A stretch of 64,000 nucleotides of DNA from Planctomycetota bacterium (GTDB taxonomy: Bacteria > Planctomycetota > MHYJ01 > WSZJ01): NCBI GenBank assembly GCA_038060895.1, contig JBBTCT010000022.1:192001-256000 (forward strand), given 5' to 3'. Each line of letters begins with the position of its first letter. Position 1 is the stretch's first letter. Positions 2,747 to 7,919 of the stretch are shown in pieces. A program made the translations under genes and the position numbers. Below the pieces are notes generated by a model, which was given only the letters and a program-made list of their open reading frames with translations, was not told the origin of the DNA and did no database searches.

Positions 2747-3134
2747 GAGGCCCCGGACCCTGCGCGCTTAAGGCAGTCTCGGAATCTCGCCGTGCCGGAC
2801 GGAAGTAACTGCATCGGATAACCGAGCCCAGACCGGCGAGTTCTTCGTTGCTTGAAAAGGGCTCCCCGATCAGAACTCGAACTGATTGCGCGAGCATTTC
2901 GCGATGATGGCGCTTCATGCATCGAAGCTGTCAAGGCGCCGCGTCCACGGGACAGGGCCTACTCGTGCGCTCAGCGGAAAGTTCGGATTTCATCCAGACT
3001 GGTGACCAGACTGGATACGAATACGAACTATGGCCGAGATGGCGAAGGGCCTCCAGTTCAGCTAACTGAAGCCAGCGGCGGAAGTTGCATCAATTTCTGC
3101 CTGCGACAGCTGATAGTTCGTATTTCATCCAAAG

Positions 3135-3207
3135 TGCCCCCCGCAGGATTCGAACCTGCACAAGACCGGTTTTGAATCGGTCGCCTCTGCCGTTGGGCTA
3201 CGAGGGC
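3135..3207 (-). tRNA. trnL: tRNA-Leu(CAA), short variable loop
   Basis: Cloverleaf; anticodon loop TT-CAA-AA; T-loop TTCGAAT; A73. Confidence 0.85.
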
Positions 3208-3219
3208 CTGCGAATCAAA

Positions 3220-3290
3220 AGCTCCCGATGGGAATCGAACCCACACCCTCCTGCTTACGAGGCAGGTGCTCTCCTTTGAGCTACAAGAGC
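3220..3290 (-). tRNA. trnT: tRNA-Thr(CGT)
   Basis: Stem CCTGC/GCAGG, loop CT-CGT-AA; T-loop TTCGATT. Confidence 0.9.
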
Positions 3291-3293
3291 GGA

Positions 3294-3364
3294 TGCGCTC
3301 GTCAGGACTCGAACCTGCATCGGCCGGTTATCGACCGGCTGCTCTACCGCTGAGCTACGGGCGC
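3294..3364 (-). tRNA. trnI: tRNA-Ile(GAT), C33
   Basis: Stem GCCGG/CCGGC, loop TC-GAT-AA; single mismatches in the acceptor and T stems. Confidence 0.8.
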
Positions 3365-3367
3365 GCA

Positions 3368-3438
3368 AGCCTCTCGAGGGGGACGATCCCTCTTCTCCTG
3401 CCTGGGAAGCAGGCGTTCCACCGTTAAACCAGAGAGGC
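3368..3438 (-). tRNA. trnG: tRNA-Gly(CCC), atypical T-loop
   Basis: Perfect acceptor stem, loop TT-CCC-AG, U73; T-loop ATCGTCC. Confidence 0.75.
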
Positions 3439-3442
3439 GAAG

Positions 3443-3514
3443 TGCTCTCGGCAGGAATCGAACCTGCGGTCTTCAGCATGTCGGGCTGCCGCTCTTCCGC
3501 TGAGCTACGAGAGC
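3443..3514 (-). tRNA. trnV: tRNA-Val(GAC), C33
   Basis: Loop CC-GAC-AT; acceptor GCTCTCG/CGAGAGC; A73. Confidence 0.85.
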
Positions 3515-3581
3515 CGTTCGACTCGCTTCGCTCGCTCACGGCGGAGCAGACGAGTTCGGTCGAATCGCGGGCAAAACCAGA

Positions 3582-3652
3582 TGGTCCCAGGAGGAGTTGA
3601 ACCTCCGTCGCCGGTATGTGAGACCGGCATTCTCCCGTTGAACTACGGGACC
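3582..3652 (-). tRNA. trnV: tRNA-Val(CAC)
   Basis: Stem CCGGT/ACCGG, loop CT-CAC-AT. Confidence 0.9.
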
Positions 3653-3654
3653 GA

Positions 3655-3727
3655 TGCTCGGGGGAGGATTCGAACCTCCACTGACCAGCTTCTGAGACTG
3701 GTGCCTCTGCCGTTGGGCTACGCGAGC
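3655..3727 (-). tRNA. trnL: tRNA-Leu(CAG), short variable loop
   Basis: Loop CT-CAG-AA; 5-nt variable region TCAGT; A73. Confidence 0.85.
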
Positions 3728-3856
3728 GTTGTGGTTGTCGCTGGGGACGACTGGATGTGGGCGGCCGTGCGGCGGAGGCGAAGGGTGCCCCGGCGCGCGC
3801 CTGGTTCATCAGCACTCTTGCGCCCGCAGCCTCCGACGCCGGGCGCCCACGTCCAG

Positions 3857-3932
3857 TCGGGATGGCTGGATTTGAACCAGCGATCTCCTCGTCCCGAACG
3901 AGGCGTGTTGAGCCAGGCTTCACTACATCCCG
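3857..3932 (-). tRNA. trnP: tRNA-Pro(CGG)
   Basis: C1-G72, A73, loop TT-CGG-GA. Confidence 0.9.
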
Positions 3933-3934
3933 GA

Positions 3935-4006
3935 AGCGACTGGTGGGACTCGAACCCACGTCGACCACCATGGCAAGGTGGCGCTCAGCCTCTGAGCCAC
4001 AGCCGC
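3935..4006 (-). tRNA. trnG: tRNA-Gly(GCC)
   Basis: Loop TT-GCC-AT, U73. Confidence 0.9.
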
Positions 4007-4020
4007 GTTTTGATTCAAGA

Positions 4021-4093
4021 AGCCCTCGGCGGGGATCGAACCCGCATCAGCTTGTTTGGAAGACAGGCGCCTTCGCCGTTCGGCCACGAGAGC
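4021..4093 (-). tRNA. trnG: tRNA-Gly(TCC)
   Basis: Loop CT-TCC-AA, U73. Confidence 0.85.
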
Positions 4094-4109
4094 GGAATTG
4101 TTGTAAGTG

Positions 4110-4185
4110 GGCCCTCGACGGGAGTCGAACCCGTCGTCTCCCTTCCTCATACGGAAGGGTGTCTCGCCGCTCGACTACGAGGACC
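4110..4185 (-). tRNA. Atypical tRNA: 8-bp acceptor (G-1:C73, His-like) and 20-nt anticodon arm; anticodon undetermined (possibly ATG)
   Basis: Acceptor GGTCCTCG/CGAGGGCC; normal D and T arms (TTCGACT); anticodon arm CCCTTCC-GTATGA-GGAAGGG. Confidence 0.7.
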
Positions 4186-4189
4186 GTTA

Positions 4190-4273
4190 TGGGTGCGGCA
4201 GGAGTTGAACCTGCTGAGCCCGCGAGGGCTGCTGGGTTACGGCCAGCTCAGTTTTCCGATTCCGTACACACCC
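4190..4273 (-). tRNA. trnY: tRNA-Tyr(GTA), C33, long variable arm
   Basis: Loop CC-GTA-AC; variable hairpin AGCCC-TCGC-GGGCT. Confidence 0.85.
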
Positions 4274-4320
4274 TGAGTTCGCGCGACGGGTCGGCGAGTC
4301 GCGCAATTGACGGTGGGCGC

Positions 4321-4457
4321 TTCGACTCGTGTCCGGGCGCTTCGCGCCCGGCACTCGCTCAGGGCATTCGCCTCGCCAGAGCCACCGTTCGCGGTCGGCT
4401 CCGCCATGAGCGAGCCCCCGTGAGAGGCGCGGTGCGCCTCTCACGGTGCGAGTCGAA
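4321..4457. repeat. REP-like palindromic repeat pair (TTCGACTCG...CTCGCTCA core)
   Basis: Inverted copies at 4321-4365 and 4403-4457; related copies at 3517-3542 and 5284-5339. Confidence 0.7.
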
Positions 4458-4529
4458 TGGAAGCGGCAGGGTTCGCACCTGCGTCGGCTCGTTTAGGAAA
4501 CGAGGGCCTGTCTACTCGGCCACACTTCC
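4458..4529 (-). tRNA. trnR: tRNA-Arg(CCT), A18/G55
   Basis: Loop TT-CCT-AA; D-loop AGTAGAC; T-loop TGCGAAC. Confidence 0.85.
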
Positions 4530-4531
4530 GA

Positions 4532-4602
4532 TGGGGACGGAGGGAGTTGAACCCGCATCACGAGGTTCGTAGTCTCGTGTCCTTCCGTTGGACGACGTCC
4601 CC
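4532..4602 (-). tRNA. trnR: tRNA-Arg(ACG)
   Basis: Loop CT-ACG-AA; A20 present. Confidence 0.85.
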
Positions 4603-4608
4603 GACTCA

Positions 4609-4681
4609 TGGTGAAGGGTGGGATCGAACCACCACATCCTGGTCTTCAGCCAGGCGCTCAGACCCTCTGAGCTACTTCACC
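4609..4681 (-). tRNA. trnF: tRNA-Phe(GAA)
   Basis: Perfect stems; loop CT-GAA-GA. Confidence 0.9.
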
Positions 4682-4686
4682 GCAAA

Positions 4687-4757
4687 TAGGCGCGGCGGGA
4701 ATCGAACCCGCTCTTTCAGGTTGAAGGCCTGGGTGCCTGCCATTAGCTGACGCGCCC
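4687..4757 (-). tRNA. trnE: tRNA-Glu(TTC), C33
   Basis: Loop CC-TTC-AA; T-loop TTCGATT. Confidence 0.8.
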
Positions 4758-4768
4758 GCACGATTGGA

Positions 4769-4841
4769 TGGGAGCGGAGGGATTCGAACCCTTCCTCGTC
4801 CGGGTTAAAAATCCGGTGCTCAGCCACTGAGCGACGCGCCC
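4769..4841 (-). tRNA. trnK: tRNA-Lys(TTT)
   Basis: Loop TT-TTT-AA; a few stem mismatches. Confidence 0.8.
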
Positions 4842-4849
4842 TTGCGCAA

Positions 4850-4921
4850 TAGAGTCGGTGGGACTTGAACCCACATAGGCCTGCTTAAGAGGCAGGAGCT
4901 CGGCCGTTGAGCGACGACTCT
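4850..4921 (-). tRNA. trnK: tRNA-Lys(CTT)
   Basis: Perfect stems; loop CT-CTT-AA. Confidence 0.9.
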
Positions 4922-4925
4922 GTAA

Positions 4926-4998
4926 TAGGGATGGAGGGATTCGAACCCTCGTCTCCAGGCTGAGAACCTGGCCGCCTTGGCCACTGGCCGACATCCCC
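4926..4998 (-). tRNA. trnE: tRNA-Glu(CTC)
   Basis: Loop TT-CTC-AG. Confidence 0.85.
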
Positions 4999-5009
4999 GG
5001 GCGTAGAAA

Positions 5010-5080
5010 CAGGGGGGGCTGGATTCGAACCAGCAGAACGAGTGTCAGAGGCTCGGGGGTTACCGTTACCCGACCCCCCT
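5010..5080 (-). tRNA. trnQ: tRNA-Gln(CTG)
   Basis: Loop CT-CTG-AC; G73. Confidence 0.85.
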
Positions 5081-5087
5081 CTTTTGA

Positions 5088-5158
5088 CAGAGGCGGAAGG
5101 AATCGCACCCTCATCACCGGACTTGGAAACCGGAGTCCTGCTGTTGGACGACGCCTCT
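5088..5158 (-). tRNA. trnW: tRNA-Trp(CCA), A18/G55
   Basis: Loop TT-CCA-AG; A1-U72, G73; T-loop TGCGATT. Confidence 0.85.
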
Positions 5159-5163
5159 ACGAA

Positions 5164-5235
5164 TGGAAGTGGTGGGAATCGAACCCACAGTCTCCTGCTT
5201 GCGGAGCAGGCGCCTTCCCGTTGGGCTACACCCCC
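5164..5235 (-). tRNA. trnA: tRNA-Ala(CGC), C33
   Basis: G3:U70 identity pair; loop TC-CGC-AA. Confidence 0.9.
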
Positions 5236-5276
5236 GAATGCAAGTCCTTCAACTGGTCAAAGCCTCCGTCCCGTCT

Positions 5277-5339
5277 CGGCTCCGCCATGAGCGAGCCCCC
5301 GTGAGAGGCGCGAAGCGCCTCACATGGGGGCGAGTCGAA
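5277..5339. repeat. REP-like repeat, near-identical to 4396-4457
   Basis: cggctccgccatgagcgagcccccgtgagaggcgc...gcgagtcgaa is shared by both copies. Confidence 0.8.
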
Positions 5340-5411
5340 TGGAAGCGGCGGGAATCGAACCCGCATGGGCCTGTCTGCCGGACAGGTGCCTTCCCGTTAG
5401 GCAACGCCCCC
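5340..5411 (-). tRNA. trnA: tRNA-Ala(GGC), C33
   Basis: G3:U70; loop CC-GGC-AG. Confidence 0.9.
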
Positions 5412-5546
5412 GACGTTTTCGTCGTTTTCCATTCCCGTGCGCGAGGATGTCGTGCGGCGCAGCGAGGAGGTGCGTCGGGCCCGCGCCGGCCATTTGGCGC
5501 GGAGTCCGGCGCGCTTCCTCGCGAAGCCGCACGACATCCTCGCGCA

Positions 5547-5638
5547 CGGGGAGTGGGGTTTTCTACCCCCGGGGGCCGCCTTGAGGGCGGCCCGCCTCGT
5601 TAGCAATGAGGTGCTTTAAGCCGCTCAGCCACCTCCCC
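5547..5638 (-). tRNA. trnS: tRNA-Ser(GCT), degenerate T-arm (possible pseudogene)
   Basis: Loop TT-GCT-AA, long variable hairpin; T-loop reads TAGAAAA. Confidence 0.7.
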
Positions 5639-5666
5639 GGATTTGCGCGATGGGATCGCGCATTGA

Positions 5667-5755
5667 AGGAAGGTGAAGGATTCGAACCTTCGTCCCCCTC
5701 GCGGGGGCTCCTGTTTTCGAGACAGGCGCGATAAGCCGGACTCTGCCAACCTTCC
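5667..5755 (-). tRNA. trnS: tRNA-Ser(CGA)
   Basis: Loop CT-CGA-AA, long variable arm. Confidence 0.9.
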
Positions 5756-5760
5756 GTGGA

Positions 5761-5833
5761 CAGGGGCACCAGGATTCGAACCTGGATCAACCTCCTTAAC
5801 AGGGAGGTGACTTACCGGTTAGCCCACACCCCT
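5761..5833 (-). tRNA. trnN: tRNA-Asn(GTT)
   Basis: Loop CT-GTT-AA; G73. Confidence 0.9.
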
Positions 5834-5950
5834 AACTTGCACGGGCCTTTCCGCTCGTGCCGCGTGCGGCGGAGCGAATCTGGACGCCGCGCCCGCGCCG
5901 GACTTTCGGCGCGGCGTGCGGCGTCCGGATTCGCGGAGCCGCATGCGGCA

Positions 5951-6024
5951 CGAGGGCGACGGGATTTGAACCCGTGATCTCCGCCGTGACAGGGCGGTGT
6001 CTTGAGCCTCTGGACGACGCCCCC
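5951..6024 (-). tRNA. trnD: tRNA-Asp(GTC)
   Basis: Loop CT-GTC-AC; G73. Confidence 0.92.
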
Positions 6025-6028
6025 AGAA

Positions 6029-6100
6029 TCGCGCCTGCAGGAATCGAACCTGCCTGCTCCTGGTTCCAGGCCAGGCGCGCAGCCACTGCGCCAAGACGCG
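6029..6100 (-). tRNA. trnP: tRNA-Pro(TGG), C33/A37
   Basis: C1-G72, A73; loop CC-TGG-AA. Confidence 0.85.
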
Positions 6101-6216
6101 AGGAATTGCTTTTTTGCCGGGCCGTTCCATTTGCGGAGGGGTGGGAGTCGAAGGAACGCGGAGTCGCGCGGCCGTTCGTGCGACTCCGCGTTCCTTCGAC
6201 TCCCACCCCTCCGCAA

Positions 6217-6290
6217 AGCGCGGAAGTGGATTCGAACCACTGCGCACCGGTTTTGCGGACCGAGCCGTTGAGCCACTCCGGCATCCGCGC
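6217..6290 (-). tRNA. trnC: tRNA-Cys(GCA), C33
   Basis: Loop CC-GCA-AA; U73. Confidence 0.85.
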
Positions 6291-6296
6291 GCTTGA

Positions 6297-6367
6297 TAGC
6301 GGGAAGGGGAATCGCACCCCTGTGTGCGGCTTATGAGACCGCCGATCAGCTACTGATCCATCCCGCA
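6297..6367 (-). tRNA. trnM: tRNA-Met(CAT), unpaired 1x72, A18/G55
   Basis: Loop CT-CAT-AA; T1xT72 mismatch; T-loop TGCGATT. Confidence 0.8.
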
Positions 6368-6567
6368 GGGATTTGAGGTGGGAGGTTGTTGATTTGCGAG
6401 GCGAGACGAACGGCCGCCTCGCCTCGCACATCAACAACCTCCCACCTCAAATCCCCGGTACGGCAATGACCGCACGAACAGGGGAGAAAAGAACCGGCCC
6501 GGGCGCGTCGCCGTGAGGGGGGGAGGGGCGGACGTCGGGGGAGGGCCATTGTTGCCCGGGCCGGGGA

Positions 6568-6640
6568 TGTGTCCGGCAGGAGTCGCACCTGCAACCTCCA
6601 GATTCGGAGACTGGGGCTCTTCTGGTTGAGCTACAGACAC
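6568..6640 (-). tRNA. trnR: tRNA-Arg(CCG), A18/G55
   Basis: Loop CT-CCG-AA; T-loop TGCGACT. Confidence 0.85.
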
Positions 6641-6789
6641 AGGGAAGAAGGGTCGTTTTGCCGTTCGCCAATTCGCGCTTCGGGATGATGAAGCGACGGG
6701 GTCGGGGCGAGCGGCCACACTTGAAGGCAAGCTGACCAGAGATTGTGAGCGAGCTCCGACTCCGTCGCTTCATCATCCCGAGGCGCGAA

Positions 6790-6860
6790 TTGGGGCGGCA
6801 CGACTCGAACGTGCACGGCGAGGTTCAAGGGCTCGCGGCCTACCTTTAGCTGACGCCCCA
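6790..6860 (-). tRNA. trnQ: tRNA-Gln(TTG), C33
   Basis: U1-A72; loop CC-TTG-AA. Confidence 0.85.
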
Positions 6861-6994
6861 GAAGTTTCGTTGCCGTCCTGAATGCAGGGGTGTGATCGAT
6901 CGATTGGCTTGTCGTTCGGCCCGGGCGGAGCCGGCCGTATGGCGGAGGTCGGGACGAACGACGAGCCAATCGATCGATCACACCCCTGCATTCA

Positions 6995-7067
6995 TCGGGG
7001 TTGAAGGAGTTGAACCTTCATCTGCGCATTGAGGGGGCGCCGTCCTCAGCCATTAGACGAAACCCCA
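6995..7067 (-). tRNA. trnE: tRNA-Glu(CTC), second copy, C33
   Basis: Loop CC-CTC-AA; T-loop TTCAACT. Confidence 0.75.
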
Positions 7068-7089
7068 GGAAGGCGAGGGCAGCAGAGAT

Positions 7090-7230
7090 TCAGAAAAACC
7101 GGCTCCCGATTCCCGGGTTGGGAATGGGATGACATGGAACCGGAAGCCGGTTCGGGAAGATCCGCCGGTTATCAAAGATCACTTCGCGCTGCGTCGGTTG
7201 ACCGCAACTTGCGCTTCCATCTCCTGGCAT
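7090..7230 (-). CDS. Putative 46-aa leader peptide (MPGDGSASCGQ...GSRFF)
   Basis: AGGAGG 6 nt upstream of the ATG; the ORF runs through a terminator-like hairpin and stops just after its U-tract. Confidence 0.4.
   Translation of the reverse strand: MPGDGSASCGQPTQREVIFDNRRIFPNRLPVPCHPIPNPGIGSRFF
7094..7150 (-). terminator. Intrinsic terminator or attenuator hairpin inside the tRNA array
   Basis: 15-bp stem CCGGCTTCCGGTTCC/GGAATCGGGAGCCGG followed by TTTTT. Confidence 0.55.
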
Positions 7231-7245
7231 GACGTTCCTCCTGCA

Positions 7246-7316
7246 AGGGACCGGTCGGGGTTGCACCGACGTCTCCCGGGCCACAGCCGGGCGGTCTGCT
7301 GTTGAGCTACAGTCCC
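7246..7316 (-). tRNA. trnH: tRNA-His(GTG) without G-1:C73, A18/G55
   Basis: Loop CT-GTG-GC; position -1 is C and N73 is T; T-loop TGCAACC. Confidence 0.8.
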
Positions 7317-7375
7317 GTGGCGGCGCCGGTCTGGAAGGTTGATGAGTGAAGCGGCGAAAAGGTTCGCGCGTGTGG

Positions 7376-7409
7376 AAAACGAAAACGCCGCCGAGTGATC
7401 GGCGGCGTT
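7376..7409 (-). terminator. Intrinsic terminator downstream of the small secreted-peptide gene
   Basis: AACGCCGCCGA-TCAC-TCGGCGGCGTT followed by TTCGTTTT. Confidence 0.7.
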
Positions 7410-7435
7410 CTGTTTGATCCTGGTCTGGCCGGCGG

Positions 7436-7663
7436 CTACATGCACTCGTTGCCCATTCCGACGTCTTCCGAACCGGCGCCGGATTCCGAGTCCATGCCGC
7501 CTTCGGTCGCGTCGCCGCCGGAGTGATCGTCCGTGCCGGGGAGCGGGCCGTCGCCGGTGCCGCCACCGTCGTAACCCGGCGCGGGCGGGGGAGGGCAGGC
7601 GAACGTCAGGACCGGGCTGGACAGGACTGCGAGGGTCACGAGCGCGATGATGAAGAGTTTCAT
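7436..7663 (-). CDS. Small secreted acidic Gly/Asp/Pro-rich peptide (75 aa)
   Basis: RBS AAGGAG, signal peptide MKLFIIALVTLAVLSSPVLTFA, own terminator. Confidence 0.65.
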   Translation of the reverse strand: MKLFIIALVTLAVLSSPVLTFACPPPPAPGYDGGGTGDGPLPGTDDHSGGDATEGGMDSESGAGSEDVGMGNECM

Positions 7664-7919
7664 GGTTATCTCCTTGATTTCTTTGTTTGAAGGCGTTTGT
7701 TTGTTTCGTACGACGGAAGTATGTATAGCAACGGGGGTGCCACTCGTTCCGCCTGCCGCCAACATCGACATAAAGCGTGTATTAGTAGTGTCTTGCGAGC
7801 GAATCACGATTTCCATGGCGCTCGAATTGAGCCATTAGCGTACGAAAACAAGACGATAACGCCGTACGCGAGTATGGGATTCGATCCCAAGCGGGTGCCA
7901 GCCTCTGCCAGCCACGCGC

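Follow-up and report, generated by a model that had tools for sequence, protein, structure and literature searches.

The window, a stretch of 64,000 nucleotides of planctomycete DNA, contains an array of tRNA genes whose spacers hold all seven of the long hairpins described here. The features of the array are:

3134..7316, minus strand: array of 34 tRNA genes, all 34 on this strand (ARAGORN)
3728..3859, minus strand: element at the 3' end of tRNA-Pro(cgg), an interrupted hairpin (3748-3859) with a distal tail (3728-3747); dG -72.2 kcal/mol, z -4.87
4274..4457, minus strand: less perfect fold-back spacer after tRNA-Arg(cct)
5412..5550, minus strand: element at the 3' end of tRNA-Ser(gct), hairpin 5434-5550 with a purine-rich tail (5412-5433); dG -99.5 kcal/mol, z -12.1
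5835..5954, minus strand: element at the 3' end of tRNA-Asp, hairpin 5854-5954 with tail 5835-5853; z -11.4
6102..6217, minus strand: element at the 3' end of tRNA-Cys, 38-bp perfect hairpin (6130-6217) with tail 6102-6129; z -14.7
6368..6480, plus strand: element at the 5' end of tRNA-Met, in the opposite orientation, hairpin 6368-6455 with a tail from 6456; z -17.4
6482..6564, minus strand: terminator-like 11-bp stem and large loop followed by a U-rich run, immediately downstream of tRNA-Arg(ccg), called from sequence
6642..6793, minus strand: element at the 3' end of tRNA-Gln(ttg), hairpin 6668-6793 with tail CGAACGGCAAAACGAC at 6642-6667; z -11.2
6861..6994, minus strand: element at the 3' end of tRNA-Glu(ctc), hairpin 6879-6994 with tail GGACGGCAACGAAAC at 6861-6878; z -13.4

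ARAGORN called 85 tRNAs in the 5.42-Mb genome under study (G000), the 34-gene array being additional to the dispersed set; the tRNA ends used below are ARAGORN calls, with a possible error of one or two bases. The Rfam tRNA model placed 33 of the 34 array genes above its gathering score; tRNA-Ser(gct) reached 25.2, short of the required 29 bits; Rfam gives no row for 4109-4184 and has tRNA-Tyr under tRNA-Sec only. No trailer in G000 starts with CCA (0/85), so CCA is not encoded, and a T lies directly after the discriminator in 67 of the 85 tRNAs. We compared G000 with seven congeners (eight genomes of the genus), the genomes compared being MAGs that are 81-94% complete.

Folded at their exact coordinates, all seven of the hairpins reported in the initial annotation proved highly stable, at -72.2 to -99.5 kcal/mol with z scores of -4.87 to -17.35, and for none of them did any of 200 dinucleotide shuffles fold equally well. 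An inverted-repeat search recovered six of the seven, with arms of 37-45 nt that are 86-98% complementary, and omitted the more interrupted 3748-3859, for which folding gives a single hairpin. The 25- and 38-bp perfect matches described previously are present in the outer arm of 5434-5550 and in 6130-6217, respectively. The ARAGORN ends also bore out the placement of six hairpins at tRNA 3' ends and one at the tRNA-Met 5' end; contact with the genes stood, but the claimed overlap of 0-4 nt had to be widened to 0-5 nt (Pro(cgg) 4, Ser(gct) 5, Asp 5, Cys 1, Gln(ttg) 4 and Glu(ctc) 0), and hairpin 6368-6455 begins 1 nt past the tRNA-Met 5' end (gap 0). The same element type lies at tRNA-Cys (6130-6217) and tRNA-Met (6368-6455): the 12-nt loop ACGAACGGCCGC, on the minus strand at tRNA-Cys, is found identical on the plus strand at tRNA-Met, which matches their 3' versus 5' placement.

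A position after genes would suit intrinsic terminators, and unitig contigs that end inside the palindromes would suit assembly artefacts, but both explanations are already contradicted and we hold them to be very improbable. None of the seven hairpins was called terminator-like or is followed by a T run, terminators of the ordinary U-tract type occur after 5S rRNA in G000 and after RNase P RNA in congeners, and nine G000 hairpins sit at 5' ends. The fold-back artefact, a doubt raised in the initial annotation, was rejected on the strength of homologous hairpins in congeners and of independent-study contigs that match whole hairpins with 0 differences: contigs of two further DNA studies span three hairpins, two whole and one partly, and Logan contigs from the separate study X3 show 0 differences over 3743-4313 and over 5856-6145, and a single one over 6804-6975. 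As for released structured RNAs, another early suggestion, a single RNA-library contig of low depth (3516-3820) spans two tRNAs, tRNA-Val and tRNA-Leu, and half of hairpin 3748-3859.

Two further spacers differ from the seven. The terminator-like stem at 6482..6564 is conserved in G002, G003, G004 and G005 and lies outside the repeat family. The less perfect fold-back at 4274..4457 is partially repeated at 5236-5339 and, by BLAST within its own genome, C19:25457-25628 matches window positions 4315-4485 at 75% identity; the tmRNA gene is located at C19:25598-25981, and its 3' flank is a fold-back homologous to window positions 4315-4457.

The association of hairpins with stable-RNA gene ends is demonstrated genome-wide. 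Of the genome's 128 long hairpins, 23 are no more than 10 nt from a tRNA end, whereas 2000 trials of random placement put 0.067 there on average and never more than 2; this sets them apart from an ordinary high-copy REP with no tRNA-end preference, a counter-reading raised in the initial annotation. Only 25 hairpins fall within 300 nt of a tRNA end, and 23 of these are at most 10 nt away; 14 of the 23 are at 3' ends and nine at 5' ends. The 5' ends of RNase P RNA and SRP RNA are also adjoined by hairpins, and 26 of the 128 lie within 30 nt of a stable-RNA gene. A second family of the same architecture, with 17 copies in G000, is found mostly away from RNA genes, so the superfamily is not exclusive to stable-RNA sites.

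The seven hairpins are best read as diverged copies of a genus-specific palindromic repeat superfamily of ~90-135 bp; the earlier description of them as mutually dissimilar gave way to common motifs and repeat-family membership. The stem base is loosely conserved (about CGAATTCG or TTCGCG), a G-rich block is apparent by eye (not from a count), the stem is variable in sequence yet nearly perfectly paired, the core and loop are family-specific, and a T-poor tail of about CGGAACGGC is present on one side only. The polarity of the elements relative to the RNA gene is fixed: at 3' and 5' ends alike the hairpin directly adjoins the gene and the tail faces outward, so that elements following a 3' end are in forward orientation and those preceding a 5' end are inverted. 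We sampled 61 tRNA-adjacent hairpins, 35 at 3' and 26 at 5' ends, from the whole of G000 and the arrays of the seven congeners; read with the gene-proximal end first, 26 of the 61 showed the tail pattern versus 146 of 5000 random 18-mers, a circular count in that the motif was defined on these same 61 sequences, many of them orthologues.

Copies at different sites belong to common families. One family lies downstream of Arg(acg) in G004, upstream of Pro(cgg) in G003 and, in both G004 and G001, upstream of Arg(ccg), with 71-75% identity over the full length. Another family lies before Ala(ggc), Ala(cgc) and Ser(cga) with 78-95% identity, and its covariance model matched seven of the eight genus genomes and none of 23 genomes of other genera. 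Homologues of the tRNA-Pro(cgg) element 3728..3859 occur after Pro(cgg) in G003 and G001 and after Leu(cag) in G001. Within G000, BLAST showed the tRNA-adjacent hairpins to be nearly all single-copy. The clearest family is mostly confined to tRNA arrays, so local duplication or conversion could account for part of its spread.

The order of the tRNAs is kept in the seven congeners, but a junction that is short in one genome is often ~100-200 nt longer in another. Hairpins are present or absent at orthologous junctions, and paralogous copies occupy different junctions: 30 of the 40 junction types seen in at least two genomes measure at most 30 nt in some genomes and at least 80 nt in others. The empty sites that the initial annotation proposed to look for in orthologous arrays were indeed found. 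At the Gln-Arg junction the element is forward in G000 and G005, inverted and from a different family in G004 and G001, and missing from G002 and G003; the site of the tRNA-Cys element 6102..6217 is empty in G002 and G004 and holds a related element in G005; and the tRNA-Glu(ctc) junction, site of 6861..6994, is 14-66 nt long with no hairpin in G003, G004, G005 and G001. No target-site duplication was resolved at the element junctions, and the empty sites could equally reflect precise palindrome deletion, fitting loss as well as insertion.

The two arms of the hairpins co-evolve. In 21 pairwise orthologue comparisons, which are not independent, 106 aligned positions were changed on both arms versus 25 on one arm, and for the tRNA-Cys 3' hairpin of G000 and G003 there were 15 both-arm changes and 0 one-arm changes. 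Orthologues of the tRNA-Asp element in G002 and G003 are altered on both arms, and those of the tRNA-Met element in G002, G004 and G005 (79-89% identity) show compensated changes.

Such palindromes might have been generated in situ from, for example, a terminator or trailer, through fold-back or template-switch copying and growth up to the RNA gene. Congruently, the stems often take in the last 1-8 nt of the tRNA, so that the distal arm can pair with the tRNA terminus, the arms are perfect over 38-46 bp though orthologues differ on both, as template switching predicts, and SbcD scored above the cut-off in none of the eight genus genomes. However, homology between sites covers the base, arms, core and tail, the tail polarity is constant at both end types, and one junction holds different families in different genomes; SbcD above the cut-off is also missing in 19 of 23 other relatives, and G009, G012 and G019, with SbcD below it, have no hairpins at their sampled tRNAs. 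A local origin is therefore improbable.

The fold asymmetry tracks the element, not the tRNA strand. The strand that reads tail-complement then hairpin was the better folder in 44 of 59 elements, with 17 G.T and 4 A.C arm mismatches. At 3' sites the antisense strand folded better in 28 of 34 cases and the arm mismatches on the tRNA strand were A.C in 13 cases versus G.U in 8, a pattern with no visible RNA-level selection on the co-transcript. An rRNA-like processing stem was also rejected, as leader and trailer tails lacked complementarity in nine cases (z -1.1 to +1.0).

These data bear on whether the hairpins are host-selected processing or insulation modules bracketing stable-RNA precursors, perhaps domesticated repeat copies, that act as RNase III entry sites, as exonuclease blocks or as self-contained flanks that keep GC-rich leaders and trailers from pairing wrongly with the tRNA. 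Their exact position at the mature ends of four stable-RNA kinds argues for it, as do the hairpins on both sides of the housekeeping tRNA-Cys and at the 5' end of RNase P RNA, kept in 3-4 species with pairing maintained by compensated changes. A sigma-70-like site (10/12 matches) 22 nt upstream of the tRNA-Cys 5' hairpin places this hairpin within the leader, RNase III is encoded in the genome, and the 25-45 bp stems have the length of the duplexes that this enzyme cuts. The RNase III-type processing or stability signals of the initial annotation are thus a possible role, the stems being long duplexes, but one disfavoured by the lack of tolerance for wobble pairs in the tRNA strand of 3'-site hairpins, by hairpins at only 20 of the 85 tRNAs, about a quarter, and by the frequency of hairpin-free junctions. 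Host modules in any of these forms are likewise opposed by the 30 of 40 shared array junctions that are hairpin-free in some congeners, the better-folding antisense strand, the non-complementary leader and trailer tails, the lack of long hairpins at tRNA-Cys in G001 and G006, and their absence from all 43 tRNAs sampled in five other genera; taken together, we consider them rather unlikely.

We favor, with a probability of roughly 0.55, a MITE/REPIN-like fold-back superfamily, not RAYT-driven, whose members insert at the boundaries of stable-RNA genes and are cut from the precursors during normal end processing. Of the three readings in the initial annotation, the scars of a tRNA-end-targeted palindrome-generating process come nearest: the targeting of ends and the presence or absence at junctions are borne out, while the palindromes turned out to be diverged members of dispersed families and not unrelated de novo products. 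Copies would arrive via DNA-level insertion that treats both gene strands alike, its probable target being either a single strand in folded form or the gene's terminal helix. Co-transcribed within leaders, trailers and spacers, they would be trimmed off, those at 5' ends by RNase P and those at 3' ends by an endonuclease that cleaves behind the discriminator; being almost harmless in such places, they could persist. The absence of CCA from the trailers, the T behind most discriminators, the leader position of the tRNA-Cys 5' hairpin and the RNA-library contig 3516-3820 fit such harmless removal. The perfection of the arms may be upheld by template switching or conversion within the palindrome, or because the folded form is selected. 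Counting against insertion, no mobilizing enzyme was found (Y1 transposase of the RAYT/IS200 type in 0/8 genomes of the genus) and the tRNA-adjacent hairpins of G000 are almost all single-copy; the long retention at tRNA-Cys and RNase P RNA is also compatible with a host function.

As for known systems, the available text on mycobacteria describes a tRNA array additional to the housekeeping set (PMC12803027), which the 34-gene block resembles; here the array is a mere setting, however, and hairpins also flank dispersed housekeeping tRNAs. REPINs are likewise extragenic fold-backs of ~100 nt with vertically persistent, diverged copies and maintained arm pairing, but the genus lacks their Y1/RAYT gene (0/8), only one of the 61 elements has a GTAG or CGTC end tag, and copies in G000 are few and share little identity. 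The available parts of the REPIN literature listed describe no REPINs adjoining tRNA ends.

Bacterial MITEs (Correia, ERIC and RPE) are also small non-coding inverted-repeat elements co-transcribed with their neighbors, and the accessible part of one review reports Correia hairpins as RNase III substrates (PMC10969869); the word tRNA occurs 0 times in it. Those elements have a consensus sequence, target duplications and no known preference for stable-RNA ends, whereas ours have hypervariable stems, a polarity given by a one-sided tail and placement at RNA gene ends. Integron attC sites and class C group II introns show structure-guided insertion at stem-loops of diverse sequence and conserved structure, with one functional strand. 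Insertion by the foot of a folded stem is the resemblance, but our elements are far too small for introns.

In Neurospora, PstI palindromes flank tRNA genes. The GC-rich palindromic clusters and double-hairpin elements of fungal mitochondria are, in the available text, mobile, intergenic and often associated with tRNA genes and transcription-unit borders, with processing or termination roles proposed (PMC4618339). Mobile GC-rich hairpins between genes and the tRNA-gene association are thus shared, but the fungal elements are organellar, with an AT-rich background and short conserved cores, and a fixed hairpin-proximal polarity is not described in that text (PMC4618339); ours belong to a free-living bacterial genus and have stems of 25-46 bp. 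Within the literature searched, exact placement at stable-RNA gene ends in a fixed orientation has not been reported for bacterial repeats.

The genome that holds the window (G000) amounts to 5.42 Mb in 47 contigs and is 86.5% complete. ARAGORN called 85 tRNA genes in it, 34 of them within 4.2 kb (3134-7316) and on the minus strand throughout, while the other 51 are scattered over 22 contigs. The block is a tRNA array: a dense group of tRNA genes that supplements a full set dispersed elsewhere. Its spacers hold the seven long hairpins described in the initial annotation (3748-3859, 5434-5550, 5854-5954, 6130-6217, 6368-6455, 6668-6793 and 6879-6994), and folding confirmed all of them, with free energies of -72.2 to -99.5 kcal/mol, z-scores of -4.87 to -17.35 and 0 of 200 shuffles as good for each. 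An inverted-repeat scan listed all the fold-backs but one, their arms measuring 37-45 nt with 86-98% complementarity; the exception, at 3748-3859, is more interrupted than the other six and still forms a single hairpin on folding. The placement also stood, with six hairpins at the 3' ends of tRNA-Pro(cgg), Ser(gct), Asp, Cys, Gln(ttg) and Glu(ctc) and one exactly at the 5' end of tRNA-Met, except that the overlap of the six with their tRNAs is 0-5 nt and not 0-4 nt.

A fold-back assembly artefact, the doubt attached to that first description, is excluded because contigs from another study cover hairpins (3743-4313 and 5856-6145, with 0 differences) and homologues exist in congeneric genomes. 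An RNA-library contig spans 3516-3820, which includes tRNA-Val, tRNA-Leu and one half of the hairpin at 3748-3859. Unitigs end within the palindromes, as inverted repeats would predict. Sequencing runs gave no sign of empty-site alleles: none of the four joints listed skips a hairpin, and all four connect distant tRNAs. When the hairpins were searched against Rfam 15, only tRNA reached the gathering threshold; matches to microRNA-precursor models were sub-threshold (e.g., 54.2 bits vs. 89).

The array has further peculiarities. The tRNA at 4109-4184 (minus strand) has an 8-nt anticodon loop and was reported by ARAGORN as '???' (tatg); the same array position is Asn(gtt) in the congener G004, Gln(ttg) in G005 and G001, and '???' in G003. 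The array copies of tRNA-Leu(caa) (3134-3207) and tRNA-Leu(cag) (3655-3727) are 73-74 nt long and have no long variable arm, and the dispersed tRNA-Leu genes of this genome measure 75-87 nt. The His-Glu spacer (7068-7245, minus strand) is conserved in five genomes and ends in a terminator-like stem of ~18 bp followed by a U run; by eye it can also be read as a small ORF with AGGAGG upstream. The spacers at 4274-4457 and 5236-5339 have a repeat of ~60 nt in common.

We scanned all contigs of G000 for hairpins, requiring ungapped arms, scores of 22 or more and loops no longer than 80 nt, and obtained 128 non-overlapping long hairpins; the whole-genome statistics refer to this genome, and the other genomes are MAGs viewed through fetched loci. 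Of the 128, 23 come within 10 nt of a tRNA end, 14 on the 3' side and nine on the 5' side, compared with a mean of 0.067 and a maximum of 2 in 2000 random placements, which runs against the idea that these are ordinary REP sequences with no preference for tRNA ends. Only 25 hairpins lie within 300 nt of a tRNA end and 23 of these are within 10 nt, and the relation is therefore one of abutment and not of mere proximity. The hairpins touch 20 of the 85 tRNAs, mostly dispersed housekeeping genes. The genes for tRNA-Cys (contig C12), tRNA-Ser(gga) (C10) and tRNA-Ser(gct) (C22, the contig of the window) are flanked on both sides, and a lower-threshold scan adds tRNA-Leu(taa) (C1). When other stable-RNA genes are counted, 26 of the 128 hairpins are within 30 nt of one, and the following loci of G000 lie outside the tRNAs:

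C27:33966-34758, RNase P RNA, sole copy; a long hairpin overlaps the first bases of the Rfam match (5' side)
C10:55882-56146, SRP RNA gene; a hairpin lies 3 nt upstream
C19:25457-25628, 3' flank of tmRNA; a fold-back 75% identical to the array spacer 4274-4457, the homology spanning 4315-4457

The 5S rRNA is followed by an ordinary U-tract terminator. Intrinsic termination was rejected as an account of the seven hairpins: none of the eight terminator-like sites in 3000-7700 coincides with them, and their tails are T-poor. On the 3' side of RNase P RNA a short terminator-like stem is followed by a second hairpin, one case of placement at the foot of such a stem; the foot of any stem-loop was discarded as a general target, as the proximal flanks of nine other hairpins away from RNA genes showed no consistent stem. 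Nor did hidden RNA genes turn up beside other hairpins, since Rfam at E ≤ 0.001 returned two known tRNAs and sub-threshold microRNA models only at 20 further loci. At C18:73100-73219 the order is a promoter-like TTGACC...TAGGAT, a structured segment of 80 nt whose end looks like the T arm and acceptor strand of a tRNA, a long hairpin, tRNA-Tyr and tRNA-Gly; neither ARAGORN nor Rfam calls the structured segment a tRNA.

To compare the hairpins with one another, 61 tRNA-adjacent ones scoring 18 or higher, drawn from G000 and from the arrays of its seven congeners, were each written with the tRNA-proximal end first; 35 of them adjoin a 3' end and 26 a 5' end. The impression that the hairpins do not resemble each other did not survive this comparison: they share a base, cores and a tail, and homologous copies occur at different junctions. 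We use element for the long hairpin that touches an RNA-gene end together with its distal, T-poor tail, which points away from the gene. Elements measure 90-135 bp with arms of 19-46 bp. The stem bases look alike by eye, as variants of CGAATTCG, CCGATTTCG or TTCGCG, although position counts give a consensus at single positions only, and a G-rich block, GGGGTG, was noted by eye. The T-poor distal flank resembles CGGAACGGC; the tail pattern occurs in 26 of the 61 elements vs. 146 of 5000 random 18-mers, a comparison in which the pattern was derived from the same 61, many of them orthologues. A genome-wide excess of tail words was dismissed: GAAAACGGC occurs 159 times against 36 expected, yet 166 copies of the control word GAAAAGCGC were counted.

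The cores are few and delimit families. One has a 12-nt loop, ACGAACGGCCGC (16 nt in one copy), and perfect arms of 37-46 bp, with one copy of 59 bp that contains two mismatches; in G000 five of its six clustered members are at tRNA ends. The hairpins at 6130-6217 and 6368-6455 have this loop on opposite strands, which matches their 3' vs. 5' placement. Further core types have a 22-nt loop, or arms of ~20 bp around an imperfect interior of ~70 nt. BLAST in element orientation joined the copies after Arg(acg), before Pro(cgg) and before Arg(ccg) into one family (71-75% identity) and those before Ala(ggc), Ala(cgc) and Ser(cga) into another (78-95%), and paralogue alignments extend across base, arms, core and tail. 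A covariance model of the Ala(ggc)/Ala(cgc)/Ser(cga) family found matches in seven of eight genus genomes and in none of 23 genomes of 19 other genera, with 2-23 matches per matching genome (both strands counted) and the best ones inside tRNA arrays. Copy number is low: in BLAST searches the tRNA-adjacent hairpins of G000 match almost only themselves, and the 128 hairpins form clusters of 17, 16, 9, 6 and smaller, with 43 singletons. The elements are inverted between the two ends of the tRNAs, and insertion at the RNA level by ligation to processed ends, which predicts one orientation at both ends, was rejected.

This genome has further palindromes. A second class has arms of short tandem repeats (CAACTTCAA-, AAACGAAAA-, GTTCCGGG- and GGGATGGGG-like) and occurs on many contigs, e.g., at C2:104040-104196, C15:66095-66232 and C24:67717-67859; several clusters (sizes 16, 9, 6, 5, 5, 5, 3 and 3) are of this kind, and their outer ends are often GGAAAACGGC. 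The 17-hairpin family, with the core GGGCGGAGTCGGCCC...GGGCCGACGCAGCC (C1:418066-418203 and 16 others), has the same layout of base, variable arm and tail; none of the 17 is at a tRNA, and a related lower-scoring copy lies at the 3' end of tRNA-Met, with an orthologue in G002.

Seven genomes of the same genus carry the orthologous array with identical tRNA order. Beyond the genus, the closest protein relatives of one gene in the window come from planctomycete MAGs (60-64% identity), which makes the organism a probable member of the Planctomycetales. Among the 40 junction types present in at least two genomes, 30 are at most 30 nt long in some genomes and at least 80 nt in others, nine are never long and one is never short; these counts run over orthologues, which are not independent, and they do not separate gain from loss. 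The extra DNA at long junctions is a hairpin with its tail, flush against one of the two tRNAs, and a filled junction minus the element is about the short spacer of the empty genomes. The Gln-Arg junction illustrates this: G000 and G005 have a forward element against tRNA-Gln, G004 and G001 have an inverted element of another family against tRNA-Arg, and G002 and G003 have 5-8 nt only. At the housekeeping tRNA-Cys gene, G000 and G004 carry a hairpin on either side, whereas G003 shows the 3' one and a 5' flank truncated by the contig end. G001 and G006 lack the long hairpins at this gene, and none adjoins it in 10 genomes of other genera. In a control of 43 tRNAs at 30 loci (87 kb) from five other genera there was no long hairpin adjacent to a tRNA or anywhere else in the loci. 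Filled and empty junctions alike begin with T, TC or TT, so that a target duplication of 1-3 nt is indistinguishable from the conserved U after the discriminator.

Orthologous hairpins diverge with their arms in step. Across 21 pairs of orthologues, themselves not independent, both arms were altered at 106 positions and a single arm at 25. The 3' hairpin of tRNA-Cys shows 15 both-arm and no one-arm changes between G000 and G003, and the Thr-Leu hairpin 13 and one between G005 and G003. By inspection of folded sequences, the RNase P RNA 5' hairpin of G000, G002, G003 and G004 has likewise changed with compensation, and other hairpins take its place in G006 and G001. Pairing is near-purely Watson-Crick: of 1780 arm pairs, 32 are mismatched. 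The better-folding strand is the one that reads tail-complement and then hairpin in 44 of 59 elements (binomial p = 0.0002, uncorrected for relatedness), and on that strand the arm mismatches are G.T 17 times and A.C four times. This small asymmetry tracks the element and not the tRNA. In 28 of 34 elements at 3' sites, the strand transcribed together with the tRNA folds worse than its complement. The pattern argues for an intrinsic polarity of the element, and at 3' ends it speaks against selection on the hairpin as a part of the tRNA transcript. A host role in processing, a possibility considered at the outset, or in insulation may hold for long-retained copies; overall we regard it as less probable than the insertion of repeats.

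None of the 85 tRNA trailers starts with CCA and 67 of 85 have T after the discriminator; with no CCA encoded, 3' ends must therefore be made at the discriminator and CCA added later. The RNase Z equivalog model scores 69 bits in G000 against a cut-off of 293, and RNase III is present. A sigma-70-like site (TTGACA, 16 nt, TAGACT) lies 22 nt upstream of the tRNA-Cys 5' hairpin, and in six genomes a conserved GTTATCCT precedes the RNase P RNA hairpins by ~25 nt; these upstream sites suggest that the 5' hairpins are leader sequence. An rRNA-type outer stem for RNase III was rejected, as leader and trailer of nine doubly flanked tRNAs are not complementary (z -1.13 to +1.0) and the hairpins are local. 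The SbcD model exceeds its cut-off in none of the eight genus genomes and in four of 23 relatives; loss of SbcCD was not retained as a permissive cause, given that most relatives also fall below the cut-off and three of them have no hairpins at the sampled tRNAs.

We favor, with a probability of roughly 0.55, the reading that the hairpins are a superfamily of fold-back repeats that prefers the boundaries of stable-RNA genes and whose copies would be tolerated at such sites, since cells throw leaders, trailers and spacers away. An insertion at the DNA level that treats both strands of the RNA gene alike fits several features: 5' and 3' polarity are mirror images, homologous copies sit at unrelated junctions, different families occupy one junction and copies are present or absent among congeners. 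Template switching within quasi-palindromes is a known mutational process, and it could possibly keep the arms perfect.

The initial annotation had also proposed scars of a palindrome-generating process at tRNA ends. The tie to RNA-gene ends holds, but the palindromes are not made afresh at each site, their copies being homologous and polar. Stems often take in 1-8 nt of tRNA sequence, which growth of palindromes in situ may have contributed; as the origin of the hairpins it is very unlikely, for it fits poorly with homologous copies, constant polarity and several families at one junction.

Within the favored reading of inserted repeats, a more specific version is only tentative: a machinery other than Y1 might integrate the elements at the base of a stable RNA's terminal helix, the gene being read as a folded single strand from either DNA strand. 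Candidate target helices would be the tRNA acceptor stem, P1 of RNase P RNA and the terminal stems of SRP RNA and tmRNA. Such recognition on either DNA strand would account for the mirrored polarity of 5' and 3' copies, and some copies, those at tRNA-Cys and RNase P RNA among them, may later have been recruited as parts of the precursors. Should the placement stem from insertion, it would point to a recombination activity that reads nucleic-acid structure instead of sequence; a targeting principle of this kind, if it works as proposed, could conceivably be previously undescribed. If the placement reflects function, the precursors of tRNA, RNase P RNA, SRP RNA and tmRNA in a planctomycete genus would have gained long duplex modules, and RNA maturation a new layer. 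Under either reading, perfect arms that diverge jointly offer a natural system for the upkeep of long palindromes in a bacterial chromosome. For annotation, hairpins of ~100 nt account for odd long array spacers and for sub-threshold microRNA-like Rfam matches.

Finally, we compared the elements with known systems. REPIN/RAYT has a similar geometry, but three of its defining features fail here. The Y1 (RAYT) transposase (PF01797, E ≤ 0.001) was found in none of the eight genus genomes (81-94% complete) vs. 16 of 23 other relatives. REP palindromes carry a GTAG or CGTC tag at the end (PMC3733652), whereas only one of 61 elements has either tag within 8 nt of its end. REPIN populations are high-copy and near-identical, and the elements do not form such populations. 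In the full-text literature searched, which lay outside subscription journals, hairpins at bacterial tRNA ends are not described, nor are REP, REPIN, MITE or Correia sequences described as marking exact ends of stable-RNA genes; the word tRNA is absent from a review of prokaryotic MITEs (PMC10969869). The elements resemble MITEs in their small size, terminal inverted repeats and several copies (paralogues with 71-95% identity), and any likeness to integron attC would be one of analogy only. Neurospora mitochondrial palindromes at tRNA genes are reportedly a similar case. For the association with tRNA genes, the nearest analogy is offered by the GC-rich palindromes and double-hairpin elements of fungal mitochondria (PMC4618339).
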